A stretch of DNA of 3,120 nucleotides from Escherichia coli (GTDB taxonomy: Bacteria > Pseudomonadota > Gammaproteobacteria > Enterobacterales > Enterobacteriaceae), in the NCBI RefSeq assembly GCF_003334815.1, contig NZ_QOWO01000085.1; one strand, given 5' to 3'. Position numbers and translations under genes: made by a program. A model generated the notes under the pieces. The model saw only the letters and a program-made list of their open reading frames with translations, ran no database searches and was not told where the DNA came from. Below, in pieces: positions 1-3,096 of the stretch; positions within the stretch are counted from its first letter, which is position 1, and each line of letters opens with the position of its first letter.

Positions 1-31
1 CGCGGTGAACAGCCCACAGGCAGCGGGGAAC

Positions 32-63
32 GGGCACCACAGGGGTGCCCTCCCGGTGCCCTC
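32..63 (+). promoter_or_regulatory. Repeat cluster upstream of the methylase gene: hairpin GGGCACC-acagg-GGTGCCC (32-50) whose right arm is repeated directly (GGTGCCCTC at 44-52 and 55-63, 11 bp apart); candidate operator or structured 5' leader
   Basis: Seen directly: 7-bp perfect inverted repeat with 5-nt loop, plus an exact 9-bp direct repeat at one helical turn spacing, about 20 bp upstream of the methylase SD. No convincing sigma70 -35/-10 is visible inside the window, so the promoter may lie upstream of position 1. Confidence 0.3.
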
Positions 64-71
64 TGTAAGAG

Positions 72-77
72 AAGGAG
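72..77 (+). promoter_or_regulatory. Shine-Dalgarno (AAGGAG) for the methyltransferase gene
   Basis: AAGGAG lies 6 nt upstream of ATG at 84. Confidence 0.6.
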
Positions 78-83
78 TTTCGT

Positions 84-767
84 ATGTCCCGTTTTGTCCT
101 CGGTAACTGCATCGATGTTATGGCCCGTATTCCTGATAACGCCATTGATTTCATCCTCACCGACCCGCCATATCTCGTCGGTTTCCGTGACCGTTCCGGG
201 CGCACCATCGCCGGCGATAAAACCGATGAGTGGCTGCAACCGGCCTGTAATGAAATGTTCCGCGTGCTGAAAAAAGACGCGTTAATGGTGAGCTTCTACG
301 GCTGGAACCGCGTCGATCGCTTTATGGCCGCCTGGAAAAATGCGGGATTCAGCGTTGTTGGTCACCTGGTCTTCACCAAAAACTACACATCGAAGGCCGC
401 ATATGTGGGCTATCGCCACGAATGCGCCTACATCCTGGCAAAAGGCCGTCCACGTCTGCCACAAAACCCGCTGCCGGACGTGCTGGGCTGGAAATATTCG
501 GGCAATCGCCATCACCCGACGGAAAAGCCCGTTACCAGCCTGCAACCGCTGATTGAGAACTTCACACACCCGAACGCAATTGTGCTGGACCCGTTTGCAG
601 GCAGCGGCTCAACCTGCGTCGCCGCCCTCCAGTCCGGACGCCGGTATATCGGTATCGAGCTGCTTGAGCAGTATCACCGTGCCGGGCAGCAACGCCTTGC
701 CGCCGTGCAACGGGCCATGCAGCAGGGGGCCGCGAATGATGACTGGTTTATGCCGGAGGCTGCGTAA
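84..767 (+). CDS. Orphan site-specific DNA N6-adenine methyltransferase, beta class (N6_N4_Mtase-type, YhdJ-like), 227 aa
   Basis: Strong SD and ATG start. Catalytic motif IV DPPY (nt 162-173) lies N-terminal to the SAM-binding motif I FAGSGST (nt 594-614), the circularly permuted order typical of beta-class amino-MTases. The C-terminal segment HPTEKP...VLDPFAGSGST...GRRYIGIE matches the conserved core of YhdJ-like and plasmid orphan adenine methylases as I recall them. No restriction endonuclease partner is present in the window. Confidence 0.9.
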   Translation: MSRFVLGNCIDVMARIPDNAIDFILTDPPYLVGFRDRSGRTIAGDKTDEWLQPACNEMFRVLKKDALMVSFYGWNRVDRFMAAWKNAGFSVVGHLVFTKNYTSKAAYVGYRHECAYILAKGRPRLPQNPLPDVLGWKYSGNRHHPTEKPVTSLQPLIENFTHPNAIVLDPFAGSGSTCVAALQSGRRYIGIELLEQYHRAGQQRLAAVQRAMQQGAANDDWFMPEAA

Positions 768-989
768 ATGAACTATGCAGGACACGAAAAACTGCGCGCC
801 GAAGTGGCGGAGGTGGCCAATGCCATGTGCGACCTGCGTACAACCATGAATGAGATGGAGCAGCGGTACAGCTTTAATGCCGACACCCTGCCGGAACGTC
901 TGGTGCGTCAGACGCTGTTTCGCGCAAACCGCCTCCTGATGGAGGCATATACCGAAATTCTGGAACTGGAAGCGTGCTTTAAAGATTGA
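768..989 (+). CDS. Hypothetical small protein, 73 aa, translationally coupled to the methyltransferase; function unknown
   Basis: Its ATG immediately follows the methylase TAA stop (TAAATG at 765-770), with GGAGG 9 nt upstream. The protein is predicted helical and mildly acidic, with no motif I recognise. It is followed 13 bp later by the next gene, which has its own SD. Confidence 0.65.
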   Translation: MNYAGHEKLRAEVAEVANAMCDLRTTMNEMEQRYSFNADTLPERLVRQTLFRANRLLMEAYTEILELEACFKD

Positions 990-1002
990 GAAGGAGACGA
1001 GA

Positions 1003-1437
1003 ATGTACGGAACATGCGAAACGCTATGCCGGGAGCTGGCAGTAAAGTATCCGGGAGACATGCCGCTGATGCTGGTTATCTGGTCCCCGGAAGAGATTCA
1101 GGCCCTCGCTGACGGAATGGATATTTCCCTGTCCGATCATGAAATCAGAACCGTCCTGGCGCGCCTGGAGGACATCCCGGAAGACCAGCGGACTGAATCC
1201 GGTATTTCTTCCGGCGTGGCGATGGAGATCATCAATAACGTGAGCGAAAACCGCCAGGTGACCGTCCCTGCTGAACTGCTGGCGTCCCTGATTCAGACCG
1301 CTGAACAGGCATTGTGGAAACGTGAATGGGCCGCCCGGGATCATGGCCTCGCCGTCCCGGAATGCGTCACCCGCCGTCAGGCGGTGATTAATCAGGCCCG
1401 CACCCTGCTGAAAAACAACAGACACGAAAACGACTGA
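1003..1437 (+). CDS. Hypothetical acidic protein, 144 aa; function unknown
   Basis: AAGGAG at 991-996 lies 6 nt before ATG 1003. It is the longest ORF in this span; the antisense ORF 1024-1425 has no RBS. By manual count it has about 23 Asp/Glu against about 14 Arg/Lys. No recognisable catalytic motif. Confidence 0.7.
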   Translation: MYGTCETLCRELAVKYPGDMPLMLVIWSPEEIQALADGMDISLSDHEIRTVLARLEDIPEDQRTESGISSGVAMEIINNVSENRQVTVPAELLASLIQTAEQALWKREWAARDHGLAVPECVTRRQAVINQARTLLKNNRHEND

Positions 1438-1441
1438 TGTT

Positions 1442-1463
1442 ATCGCCGCCTCCGGGCGGCGAT
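1442..1463 (+). other. Intergenic hairpin (9-bp stem ATCGCCGCC / GGCGGCGAT, loop TCCG) between ORF3 and ORF4; no U-tract, so likely an RNA stability or processing element rather than a terminator
   Basis: Perfect inverted repeat seen directly. It is followed by GGGAGA (1467-1472) and ATG 1483 rather than a T-run. Confidence 0.4.
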
Positions 1464-1482
1464 TCAGGGAGAACGATTAATC

Positions 1483-2259
1483 ATGAACGAAAACACAACA
1501 CTGAACGCACTGATTTGTCGTCACGCCCGCAACCTGCTGCTGGCGCAGGGCTGGCCGGAAGAGACGGATGTTGACCAGCGGAACCCGAAGTATCCGGGCT
1601 GGATCAGCATTTATGTTCTGCTGGATGCGCCCCGGCTGGCGATGTTACTCATCAACCGTCACGGCGGCGTACTGCCGCCGCTCCTGGCCTCCGCCATTCA
1701 GAAACTGACCGGAACCGGGGCGGAACTGGTACTGTCTGGCAGTCAGTGGCAGTCGCTGCCGGTACTTCCGGCAGACGGAACACAGGTGTTTTTCCCGTAT
1801 GCCGGAGAATGGCTGACCGAAGACGAAATCAGGGCAGTTCTTGATGCAGTGCGCGATGCGGTACGCAGTGTCAGTTGCCGGGTGGCAGAAGATGCGCAGC
1901 GTATCAGGGCGGCGCTGACCACAACCGGTCAGACGTTGCTGACCCGCCAGACGCGCCGCTTTCGCCTGGTTGTGAAGGAAAGCGATCACCCCTGCTGGCT
2001 CGATGAAGACGACGAAAACCTGCCCGTGGTGCTCGATGCCATCCTGAACCGGGGAGCACGTTTTTCGGCGGTGGAAATGTATCTGGTCAGTGAGTGTGTG
2101 GAGCATATCCTGTCCAGTGGGCTGGCCTGCGATGTGCTGCGTATACCGGATGAACCGCCCCGCCGGTGGTTTGACCGTGGTGTTCTGCGGGAGGTGGTCC
2201 GGGAAGCCCGGGCCGAAATCCGCAGCATGGCGGATGCCCTGGCAAAAATCAGGAGCTGA
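1483..2259 (+). CDS. Hypothetical protein, 258 aa, with an acidic patch (WLDEDDEN); function unknown
   Basis: GGGAGA SD lies 10 nt upstream of ATG 1483. It is a long ORF in the same orientation as the operon, followed immediately by an intrinsic terminator. I see no nuclease, ATPase or HTH motif by eye. The antisense ORFs 1645-2355 and 1986-2312 are low-complexity and lack RBSs. Confidence 0.7.
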
Positions 2260-2263
2260 TGAT

Positions 2264-2287
2264 GGCGGGGAAAATCCCCGCCTTTTT
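2264..2287 (+). terminator. Rho-independent terminator of the methylase-ORF2-ORF3-ORF4 operon
   Basis: GGCGGGG-aaaat-CCCCGCC (7-bp GC-rich stem, 5-nt loop) followed by TTTTT, beginning 5 nt after the ORF4 TGA stop. Confidence 0.75.
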
Positions 2288-2670: not shown

Positions 2671-3096
2671 ATGCAATATGCGAAACCTGTCACTCTGAAC
2701 GTTGAAGAGTGCGACCGTCTCTCCTTTCTACCGTATCTGTTTGGCAACGATTTTCTGTATGCCGAGGCGTATGTGTACGCGCTGGCGCAAAAAATGATGC
2801 CGGAATATCAGGGAGGCTTCTGGCATTTCATCCGCCTGCCGGATGGTGGCGGTTACATGATGCCGGATGGCGACCGTTTTCATCTGGTCAACGGTGAAAA
2901 CTGGTTTGACCGCACTGTGAGTGCTGATGCCGCAGGTATCATCCTGACTTCCCTTGTGATTAACCGCCAGTTGTGGCTGTACCACGACAGCGGGGATGCG
3001 GGACTGACACACCTTTACCGGATGCGCGATGCGCAGTTGTGGAGCCACATCGAATTTCACCCCGAATGCAACGCGATTTACGCGGCACTGGACTGA
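2671..3096 (+). CDS. klcA: Anti-restriction protein, KlcA/ArdB family, 141 aa
   Basis: Good SD and ATG. The protein carries the pattern I associate with KlcA/ArdB anti-restriction proteins: [11 protein letters not shown] ... EAYVYA ... [19 protein letters not shown] ... [10 protein letters not shown] ... [12 protein letters not shown] at the C-terminus. Its size (141 aa) also fits. This is recall of the family, not a database hit. Confidence 0.88.

Follow-up and report, generated by a model that had tools for sequence, protein, structure and literature searches.

Between an orphan N6-adenine DNA methyltransferase gene and the anti-restriction gene klcA (ardB), a contig of Escherichia coli (NZ_QOWO01000085.1, assembly GCF_003334815.1) carries three open reading frames (ORFs), ORF2, ORF3 and ORF4, and the question raised by this locus is what these genes are and what they might do for the DNA that carries them. 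The stretch of DNA analysed, hereafter referred to as the window, is 3,120 nucleotides (nt) in length. A preliminary description, made from the sequence alone, had taken the three ORFs for a candidate novel module of anti-defence or establishment. The three ORFs are yubE, yubF (DUF1380) and yubG/ychA, which on IncF, IncI and IncK plasmids follow the M.EcoGIX gene as the remaining members of its leading-region operon. With respect to their role, the evidence inclines us, by a modest measure, to the view that ORF2, ORF3 and ORF4 are non-enzymatic binding proteins, made early in the recipient and aiding establishment of the plasmid, most likely by neutralising host proteins of defence or DNA surveillance.

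Identity and protein families of the three genes

The full 3.1-kb window was matched as one collinear block in at least 5000 enterobacterial plasmids of PLSDB (90-99.5% identity), which are mostly conjugative and reside in Escherichia, Klebsiella, Salmonella and Shigella; the closest is an IncK2/Z plasmid (99.5% identity). On plasmid F, the whole block is located at 54,166-57,180 (the three-gene segment at 54,850-56,341), between the partition genes (sopAB) and the klcA-ssb-psiB-oriT (origin of transfer) side of the leading region, and it is also present on the IncI1 plasmid pESBL, in the same position and orientation as in the window. The three genes correspond to yubE-yubF-yubG (ychA) of F (window proteins 75-96% identical), to Hp9-Hp10-Hp11 of pESBL (98.4-98.6% identical) and to yfcA-yfcB-yfdA of R64; the F, R64 and pESBL cassettes agree with the window in gene order, spacing, terminator and neighbours, and differ from it only as alleles. 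The names “YubE family”, “DUF1380 family” and “YubG family” are in use in recent RefSeq records. A match to the three-gene segment was found in 3,681 (68%) of 5,426 complete E. coli genomes; of the 5,237 matches in these genomes, 5,173 are plasmid-borne.

The same genes are included in the survey of leading regions by Samuel et al. 2024 (Nature 635:186), in which the methylase, ORF2, ORF3, ORF4 and KlcA are families 8, 11, 7, 10 and 9, respectively, among the largest families enriched in leading regions, with median positions from oriT of 21, 20, 19, 18 and 16. The families are on strand 1, the orientation transcribable from the entering T-strand (transferred strand). Families 11, 7 and 10 (ORF2, ORF3 and ORF4) were marked there as uncharacterised, with no function assigned, and many such families were proposed as probable anti-defence families. 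The labels “adenine-specific methyltransferase” (families 7 and 11) and “ArdA” (family 10) that appear in this survey are read here as carry-over from neighbouring genes or as rare misclustered members, and not as homology, because at least one protein consisting of DUF1380 only (P0112) bears a methyltransferase name in databases. The novelty claimed for the three-gene module is therefore not borne out, the module being yubE/yubF/yubG of F, Hp9-11 of pESBL and families 11/7/10 of Samuel et al. 2024; the genes, the operon, its early expression and its candidate status are all already published, and the observation was accurate and known. In the literature, no functional study of the three genes was found under any of their names.

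ORF2, ORF3 and ORF4 are genuine genes and not chance reading frames, as indicated by the ratios of nonsynonymous to synonymous substitution (dN/dS; 0.11-0.56 in comparison with six other alleles), by the exact protein sequences present on 355 to at least 1000 contigs, and by the collinear block in the plasmids described above. The gene layout in the preliminary description agrees with the ORF list and the sequence: the three ORFs are co-oriented with the methylase gene, with intergenic gaps of 0 bp (methylase-ORF2), 13 bp (ORF2-ORF3) and 45 bp (ORF3-ORF4), share one terminator, and are located upstream of klcA. The stop codon of the methylase gene (TAA, 765-767) abuts the start codon of ORF2 (ATG, from 768) in the sequence TAAATG, and a Shine-Dalgarno-like sequence is found 5' of every ORF. 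The single terminator-like site of the window, a GC-rich hairpin at 2264-2282, is located 5 nt past the stop codon of ORF4. Three antisense ORFs on the minus strand (236 aa, 1645-2355; 150 aa, 609-1061; and 133 aa, 1024-1425) were rejected, since the sense frames hold family matches and show dN/dS below 1.

That no domain is recognisable in any of the three proteins, as was first supposed, turned out to be wrong: ORF3 is a DUF1380 protein and ORF2 belongs to PF27407, both families without known function. ORF3 matched Pfam PF07128 with E = 2.8e-52 (protein residues 1-136; model positions 1-137 of 137), and is acidic, as had been noted (isoelectric point, pI, 4.8; net charge -9). For ORF2, PF27407 (“YubE”) is the precomputed Pfam assignment of P0275, the representative of the cluster that holds the exact ORF2 sequence, and it is likewise assigned to the 73-aa orthologues in six of the plasmid loci compared (L011-L014, L018 and L019). 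ORF2 is mildly acidic (net charge -4), shows dN/dS of 0.11-0.33, and belongs to a narrow family of 141 clusters among 5.8 billion proteins. Apparent “fusion proteins” of YubE and DUF1380, 189-222 aa in length (P0001, P0004, P0005, P0008, P0029 and P0040), were rejected as assembly artefacts and not a real architecture, because they are one- or two-sequence entries whose junctions are frameshifted and which originate from metagenome or read-archive assemblies. The profile searches proposed in the preliminary description matched only families of unknown function: in PHROG, all matches of ORF2, ORF3 and ORF4 are of this kind, NCBIfam and PADLOC gave no match for any of the three, and searches of PDB by sequence and profile gave nothing meaningful.

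ORF4 matched phrog_8919 over 257 of 259 positions (E = 2.9e-140) and no Pfam family in the profile search. Since a tblastn search of 50,697 phage genomes detected no copy of ORF4, its PHROG membership probably comes from plasmid-like sequences within the PHROG library. The AlphaFold model of ORF4 is confident (predicted local distance difference test, pLDDT, 90; predicted template-modelling score, pTM, 0.83) and forms an alpha/beta fold with two long helices. With this model, Foldseek, which had also been proposed at the outset, found no structural match in PDB, and in AFDB50 only the members of its own family, including the entries YchA, yubG and NgrC at template-modelling (TM) scores of 0.8-0.98. 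The family is narrow (181 cluster representatives among 1.84 billion proteins), and Enterobacterales are the source of all named members of the ORF2, ORF3 and ORF4 families and of all organism-named AFDB matches to ORF4. Invariant residues of the ORF4 family are Trp, Pro, Arg, Glu and Ala, and no conserved catalytic pattern of the Cys/His/Ser type was found in the family alignment, which argues for ORF4 as a binding protein. The C-terminal half includes a conserved arginine cluster (R220, R227, R232 and R243). The family is not consistently acidic (pI 5.1-8.9; net charge -11 to +4), and thus ORF4 is unlikely to be an ArdA-like DNA mimic; the strong conserved negative charge of such mimics is absent from this family. 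For ORF2 and ORF3, which are only mildly acidic, the charge speaks less clearly. An alignment of the two halves of ORF4 with hhalign (E = 0.003; probability only 10%) is suggestive only of an internal duplication, possibly old.

Table 1. Features of the window, with position, strand and the basis of each assignment (ssDNA, single-stranded DNA; UTR, untranslated region; RBS, ribosome-binding site)
Feature	Position	Strand	Basis
3' end of hairpin region (published “class 3” ssDNA promoter) and 5' UTR, RBS GAAGGAG	1-83	+	93% identical to pESBL
Orphan N6-adenine DNA methyltransferase gene	84-767	+	ORF list
ORF2, 73 aa (YubE / YfcA / Hp9), acidic	768-989	+	ORF list; phrog_4830, E = 1e-33; Pfam PF27407; Samuel family 11
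ORF3, 144 aa (YubF / YcgB / YfcB / Hp10), DUF1380, predicted all-helical	1003-1437	+	ORF list; Pfam PF07128; phrog_9024; Samuel family 7
Conserved stem-loop in the ORF3-ORF4 gap, GC-rich (stem of 9 bp, loop TCCG), without T-run	1442-1463	+	RNA fold -22.6 kcal/mol, z = -3.1
ORF4, 258 aa (YubG / YchA / YfdA / NgrC / Hp11), alpha/beta protein	1483-2259	+	ORF list; phrog_8919; Samuel family 10
Intrinsic terminator-like hairpin and T-run, closing the four-gene operon	2264-2287	+	Sole such site; kept in F
Hairpin-forming spacer, homologue of F “ssp2” / class 2 ssDNA promoter driving klcA	2288-2670		Fold, identity
klcA / ardB anti-restriction gene, head of the next operon	2671-3096	+	PHROG match, annotation

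Early expression and hairpin elements

As in F and pESBL, ORF2, ORF3 and ORF4 lie in the leading region, and their coding strand is the complement of the strand that is transferred. In pESBL, the transcription start upstream of M.EcoGIX has been mapped by 5' rapid amplification of cDNA ends (RACE), and RNA sequencing (RNA-seq) after removal of the donor showed induction of the M.EcoGIX and klcA operons in pESBL and F transconjugants; the former is driven by the class 3 and the latter by the class 2 hairpin promoter in ssDNA, and the M.EcoGIX operon transcripts in both plasmids rise soon after entry and then fall (PMC12672017). Location, operon structure and early induction at the level of the operon have been established by published work on near-identical plasmids.

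The window holds the last 83 nt of the class 3 hairpin region. In another plasmid locus (L001), the 384 nt upstream of the methylase gene, folded as template-strand DNA, gave -111 kcal/mol (z = -7.0 against shuffled sequences). A short hairpin at 34-52 of the window (stem GGGCACC-GGTGCCC, loop ACAGG), just 5' of the methylase RBS, belongs to this larger region. Downstream of ORF3, the stem-loop at 1442-1463 has counterparts with other stem bases at the matching place in three distant loci (L011, L012 and L013), never followed by a T-run, and may stabilise the mRNA, be a site of processing or, as a partial attenuator, give ORF4 an expression level distinct from that of ORF2 and ORF3.

The spacer between the terminator and klcA folds better than shuffled sequences (z = -4.1 for template-strand DNA; z = -3.5 for the plus strand) and is 94.7% identical to that of F and 98.6% identical to that of pESBL. 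Its conservation extends to L012 and L013, in which ORF4 retains only about 40% identity, and in such distant loci the spacer is thus better conserved than the ORF4 protein. In F, ssp2 also stalls synthesis of the complementary strand, leading to longer early expression (bioRxiv 10.64898/2026.01.09.698686). Transfer of F into the natural strains HS, IAI1, B and ED1a is lowered when ssp2 is lost. The annotations “YubH” and “DUF1472”, together with a 148-aa ORF of the window at 2259-2705, span the ssp2 hairpin and are for this reason treated as probably spurious.

The end of ORF4 is separated by 5 nt from the terminator and by about 30 nt from the ssp2 homologue, a position that is kept in distant plasmids, and the arginine cluster of ORF4 could bind nucleic acid. 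Both features would fit a control of incoming-strand processing by ORF2, ORF3 and ORF4 through binding of the hairpin promoters, timing of strand conversion or repression of the operons. We consider such a control improbable, however, because in F the conversion delay at ssp2 remained under rifampicin, from which the authors concluded that the stall requires no factor encoded by the plasmid, and because complementary-strand synthesis depends on host factors (bioRxiv 10.64898/2026.01.09.698686). In addition, net charges within the ORF4 family range between -11 and +4, and no DNA-binding domain was detected.

Conserved neighbourhood and relation to the methylase

For the methylase, comparison with the same six alleles as above gives dN/dS of 0.05-0.25, and for KlcA of 0.05-0.35. 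In the distant loci L012 and L013, protein identity to the window is 83-87% for the methylase and 75% for KlcA, but only 42-59% for ORF2, 36-55% for ORF3 and 39-43% for ORF4. ORF2, ORF3 and ORF4 are thus under purifying selection, seen across lineages with synonymous sites near saturation, and change 3-6 times faster than the methylase. Such a fast change would be expected of proteins that meet variable host partners, and is not proof alone. The reading frames are intact across IncF, IncI, IncK and more distant Enterobacterales plasmids.

The methylase at the head of the operon is of the M.EcoGIX / YfbB (R64) / YfeA (F) type with a DPPY motif (NCBIfam PRK13699, E = 4.4e-150) and is 94.7% identical to M.EcoGIX of pESBL. 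M.EcoGIX is an adenine methylase specific to single strands, with low sequence specificity, which shields pESBL from restriction by the recipient (PMC4288162, PMC7736820). It is also costly, as the copy number of ColE1 and p15A replicons is lowered (PMC7736820). This cost is one of the points in favour of YubE and DUF1380, and possibly YubG, being accessory or regulatory partners of the methylase that adjust its activity, guide it to the entering strand or keep its toxicity in check. The abutting start and stop codons of ORF2 and the methylase gene are a second such point, and a third is the gene order, since YubE follows the methylase in every methylase-bearing locus examined and DUF1380 is present in all of them except L018.

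A fourth point is the phenotype of the methylase knockout. The methylase mutant of pESBL (L020, 1383-3558) was made by replacement with a gentamicin cassette at the head of the operon, and no complementation of this mutant was found in the main text of the paper. For these two reasons, the knockout phenotype of sensitivity to restriction, of up to 1000-fold, may include a polar loss of ORF2, ORF3 and ORF4 expression. The experiment with inverted oriT abolishes early expression of the whole region, and so the effects of the methylase and of the three distal genes are not separated by it. Nevertheless, partnership with the methylase appears rather unlikely, for M.EcoGIX cloned alone methylates ssDNA in vivo and its purified fusions do so in vitro, a DUF1380 paralogue is present in the klcA operon, which has no methylase, relatives of ORF4 occur on plasmids without a methylase nearby, and a change 3-6 times faster than that of the methylase would be unusual in obligate subunits.

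The klcA product of the window matches the anti-restriction family phrog_10132 and is annotated as antirestriction protein; its allele is 97% identical to those of F and pESBL. A second DUF1380 gene, 32% identical to ORF3 and with the motif RQVTVPA in common, follows klcA directly in L001-L004, and thus a DUF1380 gene follows both protective genes, the methylase gene and klcA. The klcA-adjacent copy is located at 18143-18565 in L001 and at 12228-12650 in L002, and occurs in F, IncI, IncK and Klebsiella IncFII plasmids. In L011, where a third DUF1380-like copy is found, the positions are 10082-10459 and 10506-10940.

The relatives of ORF4 were compared by neighbourhood. At 23-43% identity, ArdA or KlcA is the next or next but one gene downstream, as counted where the downstream sequence is available, and the distance from the divergent relatives to the ArdA or KlcA gene that lies downstream is 170-420 bp, an additional small gene being interposed in L011. 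Relatives at 39-43% identity are part of the full cassette of methylase, YubE, DUF1380, ORF4, a spacer of about 400 bp and KlcA (L011-L014 and L019). A second subfamily, at 23-30% identity, carries the motif SQGDGxAFYG where the window protein has YPGWISIYV, and is found without methylase, YubE and DUF1380, directly upstream of ArdA (L005 and L006) or KlcA (L007-L010). In three of four lineages, a DUF1281 gene precedes this subfamily (L007-L010 and L011, not L005), and in L005, L007 and L008 it follows an unannotated 156-aa protein. Both subfamilies are present in tandem in L011, with the divergent copy at 8001-8789.

The presence of ORF4 relatives beside ArdA or KlcA in the absence of methylase, YubE and DUF1380, the invariable position of YubE after the methylase, and the stem-loop between ORF3 and ORF4 altogether suggest that the block consists of two sub-units, one of methylase-YubE-DUF1380 and the other of YubG, the class 2 ssDNA promoter and the anti-restriction gene (KlcA or ArdA). 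Apart from these genes, group II intron reverse transcriptase genes were observed in the compared plasmids (L001, 11997-13721; L004, 9311-10978; L018, 1587-3311), at differing points of the leading region, and insertions are thus evidently tolerated between the early operons.

Proposed role of ORF2, ORF3 and ORF4

Upon entry of the transferred single strand into the recipient, a promoter arises from the hairpin upstream of the methylase gene, and transcription of the operon lasts a few tens of minutes until expression drops as the strand turns into duplex, as has been shown in published work at the level of the operon. The three products are proposed to be soluble, non-enzymatic, fast-evolving binding proteins, which may act in the new host during this early window and help the plasmid to establish, the likeliest action being to neutralise host defence or DNA-surveillance proteins. 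That the three are not enzymes is suggested by the absence of a catalytic pattern from ORF4 and by the lack of enzyme matches in Pfam, NCBIfam and PDB. The established protective factors of this region, M.EcoGIX, KlcA/ArdB, ArdA and PsiB, share with ORF2, ORF3 and ORF4 the location in the leading region, the orientation and, at the operon level, the expression from ssDNA promoters in the recipient, and they are likewise dispensable in matings between identical strains, but differ from them in that no similarity of sequence or fold was found.

Several observations weigh against this proposal. No similarity of ORF2, ORF3 and ORF4 to known anti-restriction, anti-CRISPR or other anti-defence proteins was found by sequence, nor for ORF4 by fold, and neither a literature report nor an assay of an anti-defence or establishment phenotype was found under any alias of the three genes. 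The model of ORF3 by AlphaFold2 (AF2) is too poor (pLDDT 58.6, from an alignment of 14 sequences) to inform on its structure. That each of the three distal genes is itself induced is deduced from what has been reported for the operon as a whole. The adjacency of ORF4 to ArdA or KlcA could come from inheritance of the block and not from a functional link; as shared ancestry may explain a part of it, the adjacency is supportive, not decisive. DUF1380 can be lost and is not essential to the cassette, since in L018 (5019-6807) methylase, YubE and ORF4 are found without it, with a gap of 77 nt in its place. Finally, by transposon-insertion sequencing (TnSeq) of pESBL, Hp9, Hp10 and Hp11 were each non-essential for maintenance, and the set of 32 genes on which transfer into E. 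coli K-12 depended includes none of them.

The dispensability in TnSeq and the natural loss of DUF1380, together with many truncated or frameshifted copies in databases, could also mean that ORF2, ORF3 and ORF4 have no role in the recipient, being hitch-hikers linked to the methylase gene and klcA or serving a function in the donor or in maintenance. There seems little chance of this, because all three are under purifying selection across lineages near synonymous saturation, their frames are intact across the plasmid groups named above, the truncated copies are mostly from short or error-prone assemblies, and expression in the recipient is what the orientation, together with the ssDNA promoter 5' of the operon, would indicate.

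A function of early-made binding proteins in anti-defence or establishment is therefore taken as the most reasonable guess for ORF2, ORF3 and ORF4. The candidacy put forward in the preliminary description gains from the location in the leading region, the membership of the methylase operon, the position upstream of klcA and the context of ORF4 with ArdA and KlcA, and it is in novelty that it does not stand. As a more specific and only tentative proposal, at least one of the three proteins may be an anti-defence or establishment factor that acts by an undescribed mechanism, and the best candidate is YubG/YchA, owing to its confident fold without known relative and its persistent adjacency to ArdA or KlcA. 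If so, YubG/YchA might widen or supplement anti-restriction to include systems beyond the reach of ArdA, KlcA and the methylase, a part of the protection from restriction credited to M.EcoGIX might come from the downstream genes, and the factor would be among the most widespread aids to the spread of resistance plasmids, considering its presence in 68% of complete E. coli genomes.

What the present analysis adds to the published knowledge is the organisation of the module in two sub-units, the location of YubG, a protein without known structural relative, beside anti-restriction genes, and the possible polarity of the M.EcoGIX knockout. Among the uncharacterised genes of plasmids that disseminate antibiotic resistance in E. 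coli, Klebsiella and Salmonella, ORF2, ORF3 and ORF4 are some of the commonest, and their operon is expressed in the first minutes after entry, when the plasmid establishes or is destroyed. If their products block host defences, this would help to explain how readily F-like and I-like plasmids cross the barriers between strains, and the three proteins might then be possible targets for limiting plasmid transfer.

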